64,000 nucleotides of DNA from a phage. Shown here piece by piece: positions 17,647 through 60,991 of this stretch (its first letter is position 1; each line of letters opens with the position of its first letter). The translations under genes were made by a program, and so were the position numbers. The DNA lies in the sequence record PZ452581.1. One strand, given 5' to 3'. The notes below the pieces were generated by a model. That model searched no databases. It saw only the letters and a list, made by a program, of their open reading frames with translations, and had not been told where the DNA came from.

Positions 17647-17889
17647 TCAAACAGACTTTTTCACAGTTTTCCAATCAGCTTTAAACTGATCAACATCAGA
17701 ATGGTAAATCCAGAATCCTGCGCTTTCTCCATCTTCATAAAGAGGACATCCATCGCATTCATCTTCCCATCCCATATCACGCAAAAGACGTTCAGCTTTT
17801 TCAACAAGTTCAGAATCTTTACCGATGATATTAAAATACCATTTACCTCTAACTTCTGAATCTTTGATGCTTTGGCGTTGTAATCTCAT
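17647..17889 (-). CDS. hypothetical protein (frd.3-like)
   Basis: 80-aa ORF; early promoter motif at 17905-17947 upstream. Confidence 0.55.
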   Translation of the reverse strand: MRLQRQSIKDSEVRGKWYFNIIGKDSELVEKAERLLRDMGWEDECDGCPLYEDGESAGFWIYHSDVDQFKADWKTVKKSV

Positions 17890-18895: not shown

Positions 18896-18913
18896 CAGCA
18901 GTATTGCCGATAG

Positions 18914-18947
18914 TTGTATAGTACCATAAAGCTTTATGCTTGTAAAC
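18914..18947 (-). promoter_or_regulatory. early promoter-like element
   Basis: Minus strand GTTTACAAGCATAAAGCTTTATGGTACTATACAACTATC; part of a 75-bp module repeated at 36065-36145. Confidence 0.55.
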
Positions 18948-18970
18948 CGTTTTGTGAAAAAATTTTTGAA

Positions 18971-18997
18971 ATAAAAAAGGGGACCTCTAGGGTCCCC
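18971..18997 (-). terminator. intrinsic terminator downstream of gene 32
   Basis: GGGGACC-loop-GGTCCCC hairpin at 18979-18997 followed on minus transcript by U-run (plus A-run 18973-18978). Confidence 0.7.
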
Positions 18998-36038: not shown

Positions 36039-36075
36039 TTTCTAATCTCCGTAATTCTGTATCAGTAGTTGATAG

Positions 36076-36109
36076 TTGTATAGTACCACAGTATGCTTTG
36101 GTTGTAAAC
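36076..36109 (-). promoter_or_regulatory. early promoter-like element upstream of motA
   Basis: Minus strand GTTTACAACCAAAGCATACTGTGGTACTATACAACTATC. Confidence 0.55.
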
Positions 36110-36130
36110 CGTTTTGTGAAAAAAATTTTT

Positions 36131-36162
36131 GAAATAAAAAAGGGAGAGCCGAGGCTCTCCCT
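36131..36162 (-). terminator. intrinsic terminator
   Basis: GGGAGAGCC-GAG-GGCTCTCCC hairpin followed by U-run on minus transcript. Confidence 0.7.
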
Positions 36163-39700: not shown

Positions 39701-39729
39701 TTTCCGCTCCAAATCCGTATCAGTTGATA

Positions 39730-39764
39730 GTTGTATAGTACCACGGTCCTTGTGGTATGTAAAC
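39730..39764 (-). promoter_or_regulatory. early promoter-like element
   Basis: GTTTAC then TGGTACTATACAACTATC on minus strand. Confidence 0.55.
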
Positions 39765-39783
39765 TGTTTTGTGAAATTTTTTT

Positions 39784-40341
39784 TTAAATGGAAAGATACC
39801 ATCCGTTGTAGTTGCTTTTTCTTACAACCTTACGAAGGTCTTCTCTGTCACCGATGAACTTCGGAGTGTACTGGATGACACCTGGATGAATTTCTTTAGT
39901 GTTGAATATAATTATACAGTCAGCGACTTGATGATTTAGAATGGGCCCTAAATTTATTCCAGAACCATATGGATACTCTCCGCTGCATCCCGTTGTTACC
40001 GAAATCCAACGCGAGTCAGTTTGATGTGTCTTAACTTCTACACGAAGCCCACAGTATTTTGGATGTGCTAAAACATCCCATGCATATGTGTACGGATCAT
40101 CGACATCTTCTTGGCCTTTATTGACATATCCGCTTAGCCAATCTGCCACAAAAAACTCTGCGTACACAGCGATACGGCATCTTTCGATAACTTCTGCCTT
40201 ATCCTGATTTGGATTTTGTTTTAAAGAGTATCTTGCTGTATCAGCAATTTTGACCTTCATTTCACTAGTCAAGTCACTGTTCGATAGGGTAAATGTCGGA
40301 ATCTGAAATAGTCTCTGTAAACCCGGATTCGTTTTCTGCAT
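39784..40341 (-). CDS. denB: endonuclease IV-like (assignment by size and synteny)
   Basis: 185 aa between rIIB and ndd block, as T4 denB. Confidence 0.65.
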   Translation of the reverse strand: MQKTNPGLQRLFQIPTFTLSNSDLTSEMKVKIADTARYSLKQNPNQDKAEVIERCRIAVYAEFFVADWLSGYVNKGQEDVDDPYTYAWDVLAHPKYCGLRVEVKTHQTDSRWISVTTGCSGEYPYGSGINLGPILNHQVADCIIIFNTKEIHPGVIQYTPKFIGDREDLRKVVRKSNYNGWYLSI

Positions 40342-40397
40342 TAAACTTTCCTTTTACGTCGGAATCACTGATATTCATACAATAAATCATAGTTTCC

Positions 40398-40424
40398 CTT
40401 AAAACAAAAGGGCCGAAGCCCCTT
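40398..40424 (-). terminator. UUCG-loop hairpin plus U-rich tail
   Basis: GGGC-UUCG-GCCC core followed by UUUUGUUUU on minus transcript. Confidence 0.5.
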
Positions 40425-40427
40425 ATT

Positions 40428-40622
40428 TTATTTGAATTGTGCAATTCTTTTCTCTAGACACTCAGCATAAGATTTCATTGAGATGAACTGTGAAAGCAGC
40501 AGTTCTTGCTCAACTGCACTAACCGTTAGAAACTTTGTGCTTTCTAAAAATTTGCTCAGTGCATTAATTTTGAGCATTAATTGATCGTATTCTTCTTTTA
40601 CTCGTGCTTGATAACCTAACAT
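40428..40622 (-). CDS. hypothetical coiled-coil protein
   Basis: 64-aa ORF bracketed by two UUCG-loop hairpins. Confidence 0.5.
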   Translation of the reverse strand: MLGYQARVKEEYDQLMLKINALSKFLESTKFLTVSAVEQELLLSQFISMKSYAECLEKRIAQFK

Positions 40623-40654
40623 AATTTTCCTTAATATGATAAGGGCCGAAGCCC

Positions 40655-41593
40655 TTATTTAAATTGTTCAGTAACGTCTTCAACTACTTCGTATTGGCAG
40701 GTACGCATTTTAGCATCGTTGTAATCAATCGGAATTGATACTACATCACGTGGATGTACTTTAACTTTTACAACTCGGCTGGTTGAACTGCCAAAGTGAC
40801 GAATATAAGATTTAGAACACACATGCAGACCACGAGAACAAGTTTGTGTATCATCGTCATTCACACGAGTACGCGGCATTTTAACTACTTTACCAGGACT
40901 GTTATCAAAGGTGTTTGAGTGACAGTCAAAGTAGTTGTCACGAACTACTTTCCAAGCATAGAAGTAACCATCTTCTGTAATTTCAATATCGTTTGCTACC
41001 AAGAAATCAAAGAGTCGAGATACCGCTTTCTGGCTTGGGTTTTCCAGCAGATTTTCCAAGAACGGAAAATAAAATTCAAAGTTTTCACCTTTTTCCATCG
41101 AATCGAGAATACGATCAACTAAACCAGACCGTAATTCGATATTTTGATAGAACAAGCTTCCGCCTTCAATTCGAACATCGCCGGAAATATATTTTTCAAC
41201 AGCGCGACGAACATTAATTTTTTGTGCCGCTTCTTCCAACTTATCTGCTACAAGCAGATTAAGAATTTCCTGGAAGTTTGAATGAGTATTAGGAGTTGCG
41301 TTATAAGTTACACCGTCAACAGTAATTGAAATGAATTTTTTAGATGCATTCCAAATAATGTCAGATTTAGCAACTGGAGCAATAACTGCATCGCTATTAA
41401 CTTTAACTGTAATATCACCGCTAATAGTAACTTTAGAGCGTTTAGCTTCTTCAGCATTTTTCAAAACACGACGGATTGTGTCAACCGATACACCTTGCCA
41501 ATCAGCTAATTCCTGTTGGGTGTAATTACCACTTGAATACAATTTAACAATTTCAGCTTGTTCGTTTTTGGTCAGGCATTTAATATTGTACAT
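40655..41593 (-). CDS. rIIB: rIIB membrane-associated protein
   Basis: 312 aa, directly downstream of rIIA; length and synteny match T4. Confidence 0.85.
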   Translation of the reverse strand: MYNIKCLTKNEQAEIVKLYSSGNYTQQELADWQGVSVDTIRRVLKNAEEAKRSKVTISGDITVKVNSDAVIAPVAKSDIIWNASKKFISITVDGVTYNATPNTHSNFQEILNLLVADKLEEAAQKINVRRAVEKYISGDVRIEGGSLFYQNIELRSGLVDRILDSMEKGENFEFYFPFLENLLENPSQKAVSRLFDFLVANDIEITEDGYFYAWKVVRDNYFDCHSNTFDNSPGKVVKMPRTRVNDDDTQTCSRGLHVCSKSYIRHFGSSTSRVVKVKVHPRDVVSIPIDYNDAKMRTCQYEVVEDVTEQFK

Positions 41594-45871: not shown

Positions 45872-45937
45872 TTATCCTCGTTTGGTTTCGGGAATATTAT
45901 ACTCCGGTAATCATAAAGCTAAAGGCCCGAAGGCCTT

Positions 45938-46210
45938 TTATTTAAAACGGATAGTCGAATCCTTGAAGAATAGACCAGAACATACTGTTCCTTCTACTTT
46001 CTGCCCGGTAGGTCCAATAGCACGAAATCCAGTATGTTGGAAATCATTTTCAGAGCAACCGAACCAATTATATCCAGTGATTTCAATATTAGTAAAACCG
46101 CTTGAAGACAAAATTTTGGTTGCATTATCAGCATCAGTACATCCTACTAAAGATACTGCTAATACTAATGCTGCGATAGAACGATTAACATATTTCATAA
46201 TTTCACTCAA
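45938..46210 (-). CDS. putative lipoprotein
   Basis: 90 aa; signal peptide with lipobox SLVGCT. Confidence 0.55.
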   Translation of the reverse strand: MSEIMKYVNRSIAALVLAVSLVGCTDADNATKILSSSGFTNIEITGYNWFGCSENDFQHTGFRAIGPTGQKVEGTVCSGLFFKDSTIRFK

Positions 46211-47685: not shown

Positions 47686-47770
47686 GTTGTTTTCTGTATC
47701 AGTAGTTGATATTGATATAGTACCATAATCAACTACTGATGTATATAGTTTTATGAAAAAATTTTAAACT

Positions 47771-48262
47771 TTATGCATAGCGAGCTTTGCTGTAGTGTTT
47801 AATCCAACTTTCAGGAATGACTTTGTATGTTCCTAAAAATACCGCGTTGTATAACTTAACGCCATCTTCTACCCATTGATCAGTAATGTATGCACACATA
47901 GCGCGAGTACGGTTAACAACACCTTCCTCACCTTCAGTAAATTCAAACTCATAAGGAGCAACGAACTTGATAGCTTGACCGAGTTTCCACTTAAAGTCTA
48001 CACCTACATGCGAAGTATCAATCGTTTCAATTCCTTTAGCGGGAACAGCTTTCAAAAACGCAGGCTCAAGAAATTTCCATCGAACATAACCAAACTGAGG
48101 TTTAGACATTCCATCTTTAGGAATGATACGCACTTTTACTTCAGAATCTTCATCTTTAACACCATGTTTAAGCTGAATGCTTACGACTTCAACCAATTTT
48201 CCTGCTGCCTTAGAACGGGATTTATCAGATACACGAGCAATTTCACCGATATTAATATTCAT
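47771..48262 (-). CDS. MotB-like protein (assignment by size and synteny)
   Basis: 163 aa; C-terminal segment paralogous to the next ORF. Confidence 0.55.
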   Translation of the reverse strand: MNINIGEIARVSDKSRSKAAGKLVEVVSIQLKHGVKDEDSEVKVRIIPKDGMSKPQFGYVRWKFLEPAFLKAVPAKGIETIDTSHVGVDFKWKLGQAIKFVAPYEFEFTEGEEGVVNRTRAMCAYITDQWVEDGVKLYNAVFLGTYKVIPESWIKHYSKARYA

Positions 48263-57170: not shown

Positions 57171-57370
57171 TTTGAATGCTCTATAATTAATTTTAAGGCT
57201 TCTTCACGCACCAACTTGTCTAATGGTATATGCCCAGTTTTAATTGTGTAAGCTTTGTGGAGCTGATTAGATAAGAGCTCGTATGTGAGCTCTTTGTCAT
57301 AATCTTTAAATAGCTGGTCAATACGTTTCTTGCGGGCTTTCTTAAGCTGGCGTTTATTTAAACGAGCCAT
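57167..57370 (-). CDS. hypothetical basic protein (soc.2-like)
   Basis: 67 aa. Confidence 0.5.
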   Translation of the reverse strand: MARLNKRQLKKARKKRIDQLFKDYDKELTYELLSNQLHKAYTIKTGHIPLDKLVREEALKLIIEHSK

Positions 57371-57888
57371 TAATAGCCTCTGTCTTGACGAGCGAAGTTT
57401 TCAGCATTTTTCAGATAATAAAGTTTAAATATTTCTTCAGCTGACATTCCAAGAGCAATAAATTTATTCATGAAAAAGTGAAATTGGTCAATCAGTTCAA
57501 ATTTAATTTCAAGCTGATCTTCAGGAGATAAGTCTTGAATTTTCTTGGATTGCATTTCAGAATAACGTTTCTTCCAAGGTTTCCATACAGCAGAAGCTTC
57601 TTTTTCACCATTACTCATACCACCAAGAGAAGTATATAGCTCGCGAGTTTCGTCTGCGATATAATCGTCTTGGTTTCGCAGCCAAGCAAGAACTTCTCCT
57701 GCAGTTTCAAGTGAATCAGGATGACGATTTGTTTCTGGTTTATCATTAGCCAAACGAATCTGTAAATGCCGCTGCATGTCAAGCATAACCTGCAATGGGT
57801 CAATACTGTGCATAATATACTCAGCATATGCACGATTTGCTTTATCAACACCTTCGATCAAATGAGCACATTCATTAAAGTGAGCCAT
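57370..57888 (-). CDS. 56: dCTPase/dUTPase (MazG-like dCTP pyrophosphatase)
   Basis: Internal ATG at 57888 with AAAGGAAA Shine-Dalgarno gives 172 aa starting MAHFNECAHLIEG; track ORF extends to 57981. Confidence 0.9.
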   Translation of the reverse strand: MAHFNECAHLIEGVDKANRAYAEYIMHSIDPLQVMLDMQRHLQIRLANDKPETNRHPDSLETAGEVLAWLRNQDDYIADETRELYTSLGGMSNGEKEASAVWKPWKKRYSEMQSKKIQDLSPEDQLEIKFELIDQFHFFMNKFIALGMSAEEIFKLYYLKNAENFARQDRGY

Positions 57889-57959
57889 TATTTTTCCTTT
57901 CAATTCATGGGTTAGTAGATTAATTATACAATAAATATATAAAGCAATAAGGAGGACAT

Positions 57960-58160
57960 ATGGTACAAAAATTAATGGCACTTGTTAATGCCATAAAAGG
58001 TAATAAAAAACGTATAGCTTTTACTATTTCTGCTATGGTAGGAATTTTACTCTGGAACTTTATTTTATCACCAATTGCAATTGCGCATGGTGTTAATATT
58101 CCAGTAGTTACTCTTGATACATTCGTAGATCTAGCATTTGCTTTAGTTGGGTTAATTTAA
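57960..58160 (+). CDS. antisense small membrane protein (66 aa)
   Basis: Strong AAGGAGG Shine-Dalgarno 5 nt before ATG; two hydrophobic segments; fills the 56-61 gap; stop overlaps gene 61 stop. Confidence 0.5.
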   Translation: MVQKLMALVNAIKGNKKRIAFTISAMVGILLWNFILSPIAIAHGVNIPVVTLDTFVDLAFALVGLI

Positions 58161-59185
58161 ATCTTAGCATATTTAGATAGCCGCATTTTAGCCATCAACC
58201 CCTGGGCAATATTATTTTTCATATATTCCATAATTTGTTCAGGGGTTGCACCTTCCTTTCTAATCATATCATTGACATCTTTTGATTTCCAGGGAGATTT
58301 ATCCCAAAACATAACCCTTTCTCCTGCATCAACTAATTTAGTCATTCGCTTAATAGTGTCAGGATGACGAGGTTCATTATCTAAAACCCACACACGTCTA
58401 TCTTTAAATGGAACAACTTCTAGGTCTAATTGACCACCCGTAATAGCTATACCATTTTCAATAAAAAGTGAATCTATAGGTCCTTCTAGAACATATACAT
58501 CACCATCTTTAACTCGTTCGACTCCATAGATTTTTGTTGCTTCAGGATAAGCTTTGATGGTGATATATTTTTGGGGAGCATCTTTCTTTAATGCACGTCC
58601 TTGAAAAGACTCAGCTTTTCCATTAGCATTATAAATTGGAATAACAAGACGAGGCTCAGGTATTTCCTTTTTATATGTTCCCGGTGCTATGCTATTAACT
58701 AATTTAGGCCATTCAGTTGTAAACCAAAGATATTTCCATTTATCCTTTGGAATACAACGAGCTTTTACATATTTTATAATTGCATGGTCTTCCGCCAGTT
58801 TATCTAATCGAACACATGACGGAAGAGATTTAATTATTTTCTTCTCAGGTTGTTTAGGAAGTTCTTTAGGTTTTTCTACTGGACGACTTTTACCTTTTTC
58901 TTTTCTTATTTCAAAGATATACTCACGATATAAATCAGGTTCAAACTCCTTTAAATATATTCCGATTGGTGCATGATAGTTACAGTTATAACAATGAATA
59001 TTTCCTTCATTATTATCACCATAATACCATCCACGAGCTTTATTCTGGTCGGTTTTTGAATCTCCACAAACAGGACATCTAAACCGTAATTTAAAAGTTG
59101 AACTATTATTTACTTGTGTGAATTTAGGTAAATGAGCTAATGCACGGTATGCAAACTCATTATCAATCCAAGGTATTGATGACAT
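58157..59185 (-). CDS. 61: DNA primase
   Basis: 342 aa; zinc ribbon CPVCGDS...HCYNC and TOPRIM motif EGPIDSLF. Confidence 0.9.
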   Translation of the reverse strand: MSSIPWIDNEFAYRALAHLPKFTQVNNSSTFKLRFRCPVCGDSKTDQNKARGWYYGDNNEGNIHCYNCNYHAPIGIYLKEFEPDLYREYIFEIRKEKGKSRPVEKPKELPKQPEKKIIKSLPSCVRLDKLAEDHAIIKYVKARCIPKDKWKYLWFTTEWPKLVNSIAPGTYKKEIPEPRLVIPIYNANGKAESFQGRALKKDAPQKYITIKAYPEATKIYGVERVKDGDVYVLEGPIDSLFIENGIAITGGQLDLEVVPFKDRRVWVLDNEPRHPDTIKRMTKLVDAGERVMFWDKSPWKSKDVNDMIRKEGATPEQIMEYMKNNIAQGLMAKMRLSKYAKI

Positions 59186-59187
59186 TT

Positions 59188-59352
59188 TTACTCTTCTTTT
59201 TCTTTAGATTCCTCTTTTTTCTTTTTAGGAATCTGTTCAGGGCCTTTATTTACTACAGCGCCTGACGTTGTTCCAGTAGAGATATTTTCAGGATTACCAC
59301 CTGAATCTCCAGCGACCATATCTTCTTTGATAAATTCTTTATATGTTTTCAT
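59188..59352 (-). CDS. small hydrophilic Lys/Glu-rich protein (54 aa)
   Basis: ATG overlaps stop of upstream ORF (TAATATG); below track cutoff. Confidence 0.35.
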   Translation of the reverse strand: MKTYKEFIKEDMVAGDSGGNPENISTGTTSGAVVNKGPEQIPKKKKEESKEKEE

Positions 59353-59398
59353 ATTAACCTCTATTCATAAAAGCATTAAAAATTTGGTCATCAATAGA
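59350..59398 (-). repeat. 49-bp junction-cassette direct repeat, copy 1
   Basis: CATATTAACCTCTATTCATAAAAGCATTAAAAATTTGGTCATCAATAGA; second copy at 59708-59756 with 1 mismatch. Confidence 0.8.
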
Positions 59399-59710
59399 TG
59401 GAATAGCAACCTTTTCGGCATCATTTAGCAAATCATTAATTTCATCAGATAGCATAACACATGTGCCTTTATTTCCTGTAATTGTTACTGCACAATTACG
59501 AACGTTTTCTTTATCAAAATTTAGGTTAATATTTTCGTAGTGAAAATCCTTTAATGCCGAATATATCTTTAAAATGAAATTGTCTTTTACTACAATAAAC
59601 CCAACTTCACTATTAAAACGTGGTTCATGGAAACTATAATAAACCTTTTCATCTATAAAATCGTATGAAATTTTTTCCATTTTTAAATATGAAAATTCAG
59701 AACTATACAT
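59354..59710 (-). CDS. hypothetical protein (61.x family, shared C-terminal tail)
   Basis: 118 aa ending SIDDQIFNAFMNRG. Confidence 0.55.
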   Translation of the reverse strand: MYSSEFSYLKMEKISYDFIDEKVYYSFHEPRFNSEVGFIVVKDNFILKIYSALKDFHYENINLNFDKENVRNCAVTITGNKGTCVMLSDEINDLLNDAEKVAIPSIDDQIFNAFMNRG

Positions 59711-59756
59711 ATTAACCTTTATTCATAAAAGCATTAAAAATTTGGTCATCAATAGA
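59708..59756 (-). repeat. 49-bp junction-cassette direct repeat, copy 2
   Basis: See copy 1. Confidence 0.8.
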
Positions 59757-60338
59757 AACATTTACTTTAGACTGTTTTTCTGATGGTAATTCATATCCAC
59801 ATATTACAATTTTGTAATCAATATCAAAATACACAGAAGCAATATGATTAATGATGTTTTCAGTAAAGTCTAAATCAACGTCAATATCTTTTTGACCACA
59901 GCCCAAAGGATAAATAATGCGAGTAATTCGATTATCTTTAACAAATATTCCACCGACATACTCTGTGCTGCGTTTAAAGTCTACACGCCGACGAAATGAA
60001 AAATATTCAGGCTCTCTATGAGCTCGGCTCATAGGACACAACGAGTAACTAGAATAAGAGATGTCAAATCCTACGCCTTCGATATGAGCCATAGTGTCAT
60101 GATTAAACCAATTATAATCGTACGCCAAATCCATTAGATTATAATATGTAAAAGACACCGGATTAACATCATTAGTCACAAGCATGTAATTAGCAACTGC
60201 TATAATTTCATTGTTTTTAACGAATACAAACCGTGATTGATGCGAATGACCTGGACCCGCGTTTTCACGATTAATGATATAACACTGGGCACTTTTATAT
60301 TTGTATGTATCTTTGCACTTGTGCATTTGATAGAGCAT
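59712..60338 (-). CDS. hypothetical protein (61.x family, two-module paralogue)
   Basis: 208 aa ending SIDDQIFNAFMNKG; internal FVKDN/IVVKDN modules. Confidence 0.55.
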   Translation of the reverse strand: MLYQMHKCKDTYKYKSAQCYIINRENAGPGHSHQSRFVFVKNNEIIAVANYMLVTNDVNPVSFTYYNLMDLAYDYNWFNHDTMAHIEGVGFDISYSSYSLCPMSRAHREPEYFSFRRRVDFKRSTEYVGGIFVKDNRITRIIYPLGCGQKDIDVDLDFTENIINHIASVYFDIDYKIVICGYELPSEKQSKVNVSIDDQIFNAFMNKG

Positions 60339-60631
60339 TATTCACCTACCACTTCAGCGATGATATTTTTGTTATTAAAGTTTTTATCGCAATACAGAAC
60401 ATAATTATACTGCATTACACCACCAGACTTAAGCTGTTTTTGCACTTCAGCTTTCATTTCAGGACGATCGCGCTCAACAATATTCATAATATCCGCTTCA
60501 ATTTGAGTTTCAACCTCAGTCTGATTAGCAGTCATAGACCATTCGCACAAATCTTTATCATATCCTGCCATAGCAGGCTGAGCAGCACAAGAAGCCAAAG
60601 TAAAAATTGTAGCAAAAATAAATTTTTTCAT
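60338..60631 (-). CDS. sp: periplasmic Spackle-like protein (assignment by size and signal peptide)
   Basis: 97 aa with N-terminal signal peptide ...ASCAAQPAMA. Confidence 0.55.
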   Translation of the reverse strand: MKKFIFATIFTLASCAAQPAMAGYDKDLCEWSMTANQTEVETQIEADIMNIVERDRPEMKAEVQKQLKSGGVMQYNYVLYCDKNFNNKNIIAEVVGE

Positions 60632-60691: not shown

Positions 60692-60991
60692 CTATTTTAA
60701 AACTTCTGCGTAATCACATGTTACAAACTGTTTCTCTAGCTTAACGATTTTACGAAAATACCTTTTATACTGACGAATCTGCCTCTTCGTAGGACGTACA
60801 GCAAACTTAATAAATTCCACTCGACCAAATGGAGGACTTTCTTCTGCTGGAATATCTAACACCAATTCCCACGTATCTGCAATAAGTGCTTTGAATTGAG
60901 TATTTTTCCTGACGTTATACGGAGTAGGTTTAAATAAAACAATATGCATATTATCCTCGGCAATCCACTTCGCACACTTTCTTGTCATCAA
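60692..60991 (-). CDS. hypothetical protein (61.4-like)
   Basis: 99 aa. Confidence 0.55.
   Translation of the reverse strand: MMTRKCAKWIAEDNMHIVLFKPTPYNVRKNTQFKALIADTWELVLDIPAEESPPFGRVEFIKFAVRPTKRQIRQYKRYFRKIVKLEKQFVTCDYAEVLK

Follow-up and report, generated by a model that had tools for sequence, protein, structure and literature searches.

A 49-bp direct repeat as a probable shared 3' module of two adjacent genes in the anti-toxin-antitoxin island of a T4-like phage

Why should two neighbouring phage genes whose bodies are unlike in nucleotide sequence end in almost the same 49 nucleotides? The question arises in sequence record PZ452581.1, of which we analysed a stretch of 64,000 nt on one strand (the window; all positions are numbered within it). 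The window is a segment of a Tequatrovirus (T4-like) genome, and the two copies of the direct repeat lie on its minus strand, at the 3' ends of open reading frames (ORFs) of 208 and 118 aa. Our answer, to which we give a probability of roughly 70%, is that two adjacent genes of the anti-toxin-antitoxin (anti-TA) island share the repeat as their 3' module, which acts at the protein, translation and DNA levels. The direct repeat would exist because two neighbouring genes carry one shared module. At the protein level, comparative evidence argues for selection, and from it we infer a function. The translational role can be read directly from the sequence. At the DNA level, comparison of related phages shows that the repeat is used in recombination; the rates are presumed.

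A repeat search aligned positions 59350-59398 with 59708-59756 at 48 of 49 nucleotides (98% identity), with a spacing of 358 nt. A pattern search allowing up to three mismatches found only these two sites in the 64-kb window and a match in none of 100 dinucleotide shuffles. It is the sole direct repeat of at least 28 nt and at least 98% identity in the window; six other repeat families, 63-83% identical, are promoter- or terminator-like. In coding sense each copy, hereafter the cassette, reads TCT ATT GAT GAC CAA ATT TTT AAT GCT TTT ATG AAT A[G/A]A GGT TAA T ATG. It thus runs through 14 sense codons (SIDDQIFNAFMN, then R or K, then G) and the stop codon TAA; after a single T it ends with the ATG that opens the following ORF. 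The lone difference between the copies is non-synonymous (AGA for Arg against AAA for Lys). Outside the 49 nt the two genes share no nucleotide similarity, and the boundaries of the repeat are sharp on both sides. The features concerned are these:

59188-59352, minus strand: gene 61.1 (54 aa), whose initiation region is cassette copy 2
59350-59398, minus strand: cassette copy 2, in which the 118-aa gene ends (14 codons, SIDDQIFNAFMNRG, then TAA and T) and 61.1 starts with ATG; Shine-Dalgarno (SD) sequence GAGG at 59358-59361
59354-59710, minus strand: the 118-aa gene, RB32ORF033c family (phrog_4122), whose AdfA match comes chiefly from the tail
59708-59756, minus strand: cassette copy 1, in which adfA/61.2 ends (14 codons, SIDDQIFNAFMNKG, then TAA and T) and the 118-aa gene starts with ATG; SD-like AAGG at 59716-59719
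59712-60338, minus strand: adfA, T4 gene 61.2 (208 aa), matching Pfam PF23813 over its full length (phrog_3781)
60338-60631, minus strand: sp (spackle), Pfam PF25676, E = 8e-44

A near-identical 49-bp repeat with one differing base had been described in an earlier sequence-only reading of this DNA, and our searches bear this out. That reading was also right that each copy holds tail codons, a stop codon, an SD sequence and the next ATG, but it counted 13 residues where there are 14 codons. An assembly artefact, which it had named as a possible refutation, can be excluded because the identical tandem junction recurs in about 158 independent phage records.

The 208-aa ORF is 96% identical to T4 gp61.2 and matches the Pfam AdfA model PF23813 at E = 7e-133 (440.9 bits, cutoff 27; residues 1-208 aligned to model positions 1-211). 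By sequence it is AdfA, anti-DarT factor A (LeRoux et al. 2022, as cited in PMC11825919), an identity that the sequence-only reading missed. It also missed that the locus is the proposed T4 "anti-TA island", made up of dmd (anti-RnlA), tifA/61.4 (anti-ToxN) and adfA (PMC9391042). AdfA binds the DarT1 ADP-ribosyltransferase toxin, and the substitution R164H in RB69 AdfA turns binding on; binding and neutralisation of DarT1 by T4 AdfA and RB69(R164H) AdfA are known from two-hybrid and plaque assays (PMC11825919). Like its T4 counterpart, the window AdfA carries His where RB69 has residue 164 (TENIINHIASVYF); RB69-like PhAPEC2 has NNINRIASAYF. AdfA had no match in the PDB by phmmer, and a Foldseek search of the AdfA model against the PDB gave none at E ≤ 0.001.

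The peptide encoded by the cassette is not confined to these two proteins. Our tail scans took in viral, metagenomic and annotated phage sequences, and distant members of the 118-aa family were collected by an exhaustive HMMER search. With the 14-residue consensus S[IV]DDQIFNAFM[NK][RK][GD], the tail stands at the C-terminus of three protein families, all encoded directly downstream of sp:

AdfA family: 208-216 aa, tail-bearing, in Tequatrovirus and Mosigvirus
118-aa family: 118-125 aa, tail-bearing, with members down to 49% and 41% identity
Dhakavirus family (C6 ORF33, phrog_8539): 122-147 aa, tail-bearing

Outside the tail, the body of the Dhakavirus ORF33-type protein has no detectable similarity to AdfA or to the 118-aa family (hhalign P = 0.05-0.5; no Pfam match). 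A likeness of its N-terminus to the others, seen by eye as "NAQAY/NAQCY", is supported by neither hhalign nor Pfam.

The core of the tail, DDQIFNAFM, shows no amino-acid change in 15 distinct nucleotide versions, while six of its nine codons vary synonymously. Between the window and the most distant genes of the 118-aa family, the proportion of nonsynonymous differences (pN) is 0.38-0.47 in the body and 0-0.07 in the tail, where the proportion of synonymous differences (pS) is 0.65-0.95; the tail is thus kept in relatives that are only 41-49% identical. Because synonymous sites change while the amino acids stay fixed, selection acts on the tail peptide, and these comparisons indicate that the tail is under much stronger purifying selection than the bodies. 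The linker that precedes it varies in length (about 9 to 18 residues) and in sequence (SEKQSKVNV, PEEKAEAIEVELEI, NEANQASKTDFASRGQKV). In AlphaFold models that are weak overall, linker and tail have confidence values (pLDDT) below 60 around a predicted terminal helix. A codon-degenerate scan of 185,579 bacterial and archaeal species, each represented by one genome, returned no match to the tail core, which speaks against host mimicry by the tail. By phmmer no PDB chain matched the linker plus tail, and among the other ORFs of the window none carried the tail beyond the level of a reversed-translation control.

That one peptide stays unchanged on bodies that diverge or are unrelated points to a constant, putative external partner, and the tail is most likely a tethered docking motif on modular anti-toxin proteins. 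The sequence-only reading had suggested that a conserved tail points to a shared partner; this was a reasonable idea, and the invariant core, the variable linker and the three bodies now give it firmer ground. Tethered C-terminal docking peptides include the ClpX-binding tail of SspB and the C-terminal tips of SSB and gp32. As in those proteins, a variable body, there binding a cargo or target, leads through a presumably flexible linker, whose length varies, to a short C-terminal peptide that is highly conserved, and as expected of a docking motif the conserved island ends proteins that are divergent or unrelated. The tail differs from them in having no sequence match to their motifs, and no PDB chain contains it. 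The ends of gp33 (TNTLDFLL) and gp32 (DLDDLLNDL) encoded in the window have a loose hydrophobic and acidic likeness to it, on which we base no claim of sliding-clamp or gp32-tail mimicry.

In the mechanism that we propose, the module would encode a 14-residue C-terminal peptide, predicted to be helical and tethered by a variable and poorly ordered linker. The peptide would serve as a docking motif or "warhead" that touches one constant partner, and the variable bodies would give toxin specificity; in AdfA the body helix around residue 164 decides whether DarT1 is bound. The constant partner might be the catalytic region that DarT-type toxins conserve, or else a conserved protein of the host or the phage. 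In the published T4 adfA deletion, 61.2 delta65-196, the 12 final codons survive, and with them the tail core and the SD of 61.1 (PMC11825919). That mutant may still make a short N-terminal fragment fused to the tail.

Could the tail instead be a structural or oligomerisation helix that packs within the protein on a common fold, or pairs the proteins, rather than an external docking site? A terminal helix is predicted in both the AdfA and the 118-aa models, inspection of the sequence places I, F, F and M on one helical face, and two tail-bearing proteins often co-occur. Helices that pack within a protein normally co-vary with the body, though, and this tail does not change even where the bodies retain just 41% identity or no longer resemble each other detectably. 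A linker of about 9 to 18 residues and the low pLDDT of tail and linker also fit a packed helix poorly, and many phages have only one tail-bearing protein to pair. We therefore regard a structural helix as unlikely, though not negligible. It would accommodate one further observation. In the Dhakavirus-like loci L021 and L028, both tails of a single genome carry an N-to-K change (FMKRD, FMKRG), at 1470-1512 and 1831-1873 in L021 and at about 1135-1176 and 1505-1546 in L028; the Lys codons of L021 differ (AAG, AAA). The shared change fits tail-to-tail contact or contact of both tails with a shared surface. Such co-variation within one genome could also result from co-evolution of both tails with a common partner, or from gene conversion long ago.

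The relation between AdfA and the 118-aa protein can be examined with and without the module. The GenBank label of the RB18 homologue already notes "some similarity to gp61.2; RB32ORF033c". The 118-aa protein scores 34.7 bits on PF23813 (cutoff 27), over model positions 113-211 only, and database clusters of its family also bear a precomputed PF23813 match. When the last 14 residues are removed, the 118-aa protein and its distant relatives have no Pfam AdfA match at E ≤ 10. BLASTP aligned it to AdfA at 34% identity over 106 aa, tail included, and placed Cys73 opposite the His of AdfA that governs DarT1 specificity. The claim of the sequence-only reading that the proteins share FVKDN-type modules holds, with one such motif in the 118-aa protein (GFIVVKDNFILKIY) and two in the 208-aa protein (RFVFVKNNEIIAVA and GGIFVKDNRITRII).

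Tail-less profile comparisons left a faint signal. Against the C- or N-terminal half of AdfA, the 118-aa body gave hhalign P values of 0.0017-0.007 (reversed-sequence controls 0.04-0.44), and the AdfA halves gave 0.0004-0.0017 against each other; the signal is centred on the hairpin motif G-x-I-x-V-K-D-N-x-I. AlphaFold predicted for both proteins four to five strands, a helix, a low-confidence linker and a terminal helix, with pLDDT 55 for the 118-aa protein and 70 for AdfA. Foldseek cross-matched these low-confidence models at E = 7e-4 and 0.05, and conclusions on the 118-aa protein that draw on its fold are weak because of the pLDDT of 55. The 118-aa protein thus resembles AdfA in its last 14 residues, its VKDN hairpin motif and its genomic slot, and differs in being half the size, in lacking an AdfA match once the tail is removed and in having Cys for the critical His. 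A common origin of the two bodies is plausible but unproven, and the 118-aa gene is possibly a one-domain relative of the C-terminal half of AdfA. As a body ratio of nonsynonymous to synonymous substitution rates (dN/dS) of about 0.4 indicates, it is a real gene under selection. We regard its product as a candidate additional toxin-neutralising factor.

If the 118-aa gene were a young copy of the 3' half of adfA, the 49-bp identity would be the residue of a recent partial tandem duplication. The two genes are indeed neighbours read in one direction, both have the VKDN motif at collinear places, and the BLASTP alignment, the tail-less hhalign values and the Foldseek connection between the models all speak for kinship. 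Against it, the nucleotide similarity stops sharply at the ends of the repeat, and the Pfam match is gone once the tail is removed. Near-identity of the repeat, taken as a sign of recent duplication, is therefore not evidence for it, since the gene bodies share no nucleotide similarity. The 118-aa family is moreover old, because it stands alone beside sp in about 137 records (T2 and others) and is present in other lineages at 41-49% identity. Finally, the ORF33-type protein, with no detectable similarity to either body, ends in the identical tail. We consider a recent duplication quite unlikely. The sequence-only reading had pictured a small family growing by module duplication, a picture that leant mostly on the tail. 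Such duplication is at best ancient: it may stand at the origin of the family, yet it leaves the present identity over 49 nt unexplained.

Shared-module use at the DNA level is seen in the gene content of related phages. The slot bordered upstream by sp holds zero, one or two tail-bearing genes, in four states: both genes (window, RB18, RB32, RB68), adfA only (T4, T6), the 118-aa gene only (T2) and neither (RB3). The only gap in an alignment of T4 to the window is one of 358 nt that falls within the repeat; once one period has been cut out in silico, the two align without any gap. Relative to the window, 615 nt are missing from T2 and 973 nt (615 + 358) from RB3, and the breaks lie at the stop/SD/ATG modules. 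In the phage database, the 118-aa body occurs in 295 records, the adfA body in 358 and the tandem junction in 158; of 540 records, about 158 have both genes, about 200 adfA only, about 137 the 118-aa gene only and about 45 neither (all record counts include RefSeq/GenBank duplicates). Crossing-over between the copies would delete exactly the 118-aa gene and yield the T4/T6 arrangement. The sequence-only reading had proposed the repeat as a recombination substrate, and T4, T6 and some 200 other records hold the product expected from it. Its call for a comparison of copy number in related phages is answered by the four gene contents. In trees of adfA and of the flanks, genomes with adfA alone are mixed among tandem ones, and two adfA alleles that diverged deeply are both found in tandem arrangements, so that gain or loss must have been repeated.

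The tails themselves bear traces of exchange. Within Tequatrovirus, AdfA tails are separated from tails of the 118-aa family by 1.8 of 42 nt, which does not exceed the differences inside each family, while tails of the same gene differ by 6-7 of 42 nt across genera. Tail DNA in Tequatrovirus hence groups by lineage and not by gene, which suggests that the copies recombine, and we read the pattern as concerted evolution or crossover within the repeat. Exchange or gene conversion would keep the Tequatrovirus copies alike. All complete adfA-only loci that we saw have the R-G ending of the downstream copy, which fits a crossover in the first 37 nt, the direction not being proven. T4 has been shown experimentally to recombine at microhomologies of 6-10 bp at this very locus (PMC9391042), and a 49-bp repeat should therefore be highly active. 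A simple deletion at the microhomology TGAATAA in a window-type genome does not explain the T2-type arrangement, since the junction that it predicts differs from the real T2 junction GAATAATTAGAGGTTAGTATG. On a Dhakavirus-like contig, L021 has at 1-720 an ORF resembling the homing endonuclease I-TevI (NUMOD3 and I-TevI DNA-binding domains) immediately upstream of sp; homing endonuclease elements near sp could promote local gene conversion.

Recombination at this locus has close precedents. The island described by Srikant et al. (2022; PMC9391042) is the identical locus (dmd, tifA/61.4, adfA/61.2), where short direct repeats likewise alter the content of accessory anti-defence genes. Those events arose de novo at 6-10-bp microhomologies under laboratory selection, whereas here a standing 49-bp coding repeat under protein-level selection underlies a natural polymorphism with four states. 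PeSL elements (Arbiol et al. 2010; PMC2839356) are similar in being short conserved gene-boundary sequences that act as crossover points in hyperplastic regions, where crossovers insert, delete or replace accessory genes. A PeSL consists of an intergenic early promoter and a stem-loop terminator, and the module in the window of a coding 3' end, an SD sequence and an ATG. Like a PeSL, the repeat borders accessory genes that some close relatives have and others lack (four architectures, broken at the modules); it has neither a sigma-70-like early promoter nor a stem-loop terminator.

That the repeat is purely a mobile junction cassette of the PeSL kind, conserved for gene shuffling with the peptide incidental, is for these reasons highly unlikely. 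Such a cassette would account for the breaks of all four architectures at shared stop/SD/ATG modules and for the clustering of Tequatrovirus tail DNA by lineage, and PeSL-mediated shuffling is established in T4-type phages (PMC2839356). It would not account for synonymous changes piling up while amino acids stay fixed, which marks selection on the protein, nor for a repeat that lies inside coding sequence and not between genes. Promoter-like matches in the region numbered 16 against 16.3 expected, with none in the cassette on the coding strand, and terminator-like sites numbered 0. On these counts, chance-level promoters and no terminators, a PeSL-like promoter/terminator cassette is rejected. 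The cassettes formed no stable RNA or DNA hairpin (folding z-scores of 0.01 and 0.65 against shuffles), and at E ≤ 1 Rfam held nothing relevant at the cassette regions.

The translational role of the module follows from its layout. An SD-like GAGG or AAGG falls inside the last two sense codons of each copy, and the cassette ATG always opens a gene 1 nt past the stop codon. Four kinds of gene follow it: 61.1, the 118-aa family, a 65-aa gene in Mosigvirus and a 73-aa TifA-like gene in Dhakavirus. Because the cassette ATG always opens the next gene, the module supplies an SD sequence and stop-start coupling to whatever follows. With SD in the last two codons and a TAA-N-ATG that starts the next gene 1 nt on, that gene would be translationally coupled. 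In all 12 tandem loci (the window, L002, L005, L020, L021, L024, L025, L028, L032 and L035-L037) the upstream copy ends K-G (AAAGGT) or R-D (AGAGAT or CGAGAT), giving an SD of AAGG or GAGA. GAGG is kept in every cassette that precedes 61.1, the Mosigvirus 65-aa gene or the Dhakavirus 73-aa gene. The weakened upstream SD has at least three independent variants; before a gene of the 118-aa family, tuning of expression, selection against perfectly matching copies or a common history might account for it.

An RNA-level element, such as a translational operator or structured coupling element controlling the downstream gene, is scarcely credible and is rejected: the cassette does cover the SD and start codon of the next gene, and the upstream copy of tandem pairs always has the weakened SD, but the fold z-scores and the empty Rfam search speak against it, synonymous variants occur throughout, and SD and stop-start coupling are ordinary features that need no 42 conserved coding nucleotides.

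The Dhakavirus 73-aa ORF is unannotated. It lies on the minus strand of L007 at about 2280-2504 (MFVLTQFSK...RPTKRQLRKLKK) and occurs also in L008, L009, L013, L015, L016 and L030. It matches the TifA/61.4-type families phrog_3272, 12748 and 2375, which makes it a second TifA-like gene, right behind the tail-bearing gene.

Several observations weigh against the reading of the repeat as a shared functional module. Wild-type RB69 AdfA, in which the tail is present, did not bind DarT1 in the two-hybrid assay (PMC11825919), so the tail alone is insufficient for stable toxin binding. The same source describes adfN as necessary for DarTG1 counter-defence and reports adfN deletions tested in T2 and T4. 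If the T2 deletion behaves as that of T4 does, the 118-aa gene gives T2 no protection from that DarT1, and the target of the 118-aa protein is then probably not that DarT1. The docking partners named above are candidates only, and the "tethered helix" is a soft prediction from AlphaFold models with pLDDT 55 and 70. Homogenisation of the copies is not universal, as two Dhakavirus-like tandem pairs differ at 7-9 of 42 nt. A single recent spread of the tandem arrangement could account for part of the clustering by lineage in Tequatrovirus, and the present data do not give the direction of events (deletion or insertion).

AdfA, the anti-TA island and repeat-mediated recombination in T4 are already known. 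In the published AdfA work the tail and the short gene go unmentioned (PMC11825919), and that source describes T2, a carrier of the 118-aa gene, as having no adfA homologue. Our literature search, of limited coverage and without the original AdfA paper, found no description of a C-terminal module shared across three families, nor of its double role as peptide and initiation signal or its role in the polymorphism.

AdfA is one of the few characterised phage inhibitors of toxin-antitoxin defence, and its last 14 residues are shared with two uncharacterised families. About 300 database phages, T2 included, are thereby nominated as carriers of a related candidate anti-toxin gene. The locus would also offer a natural, countable example of a functional repeat by which T-even phages gain and lose accessory anti-defence genes, with relevance for predicting the host range and defence evasion of therapy phages.

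A bolder proposal, which we put forward tentatively and regard as possible though doubtful, is that DDQIFNAFM is the universal module of an unrecognised modular class of anti-toxins, in which at least three specificity bodies (AdfA, the 118-aa family and the ORF33/phrog_8539 family) would each be joined to it by a flexible linker, and that it is aimed at a target that hosts cannot easily change. The catalytic cleft that DarT-type ADP-ribosyltransferases conserve might be that target, or else a hub protein conserved in host or phage. New bodies would plug ready-made into the slot behind spackle, as the module brings both start signals and a recombination site. If so, further anti-defence genes could be traced by the tail as a sequence tag, and a short functional analogue would be present in the T2-type phages that are said to lack adfA.

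The cassette genes belong to a minus-strand series that runs gene 56, primase 61, 61.1, the 118-aa ORF, the 208-aa ORF, sp/spackle, 61.4/tifA, dmd and helicase 41; the ATG of adfA overlaps the stop codon of sp. The neighbours on either side are:

58157-59185, minus strand: primase gene 61
60692-60949, minus strand: tifA (61.4, DUF7279), in the 85-aa reading from an internal ATG, by Pfam scan; a ToxN inhibitor (PMC9391042)
60951-61133, minus strand: dmd (61.5), the anti-RnlA/LsoA antitoxin, Pfam PF17587, E = 1.6e-46

Two entries in the program-made ORF list are too long. The 99-aa TTG ORF at 60692-60991 contains the 85-aa TifA (internal ATG at 60949) and overlaps dmd, and the 203-aa GTG ORF at 57370-57981 contains the dCTPase gp56, whose real start is MAHFNE. 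Between the minus-strand genes 56 and 61 lies a plus-strand ORF of 66 aa (57960-58160), a homologue of dam.1 / RB69ORF029w. It has two predicted hydrophobic stretches and is conserved in T4, RB18, T2 and RB3.

Elsewhere in the window, repeat families of 43-75 nt and 63-80% identity lie at 18909-18983, 36071-36145, 39726-39800 and 47708-47782, and also at 17886, 36048, 39190 and 60628. Their reverse complements resemble T4 early-promoter regions (GTTTAC ... TATAC/TATAAT-like) before minus-strand genes, and one copy sits immediately upstream of sp. A GC-rich hairpin followed by a T-run (GGGGCCGAAGCCCC), which resembles an intrinsic terminator, is repeated at 1884-1941, 40393-40450, 40626-40665 and 45907-45946.

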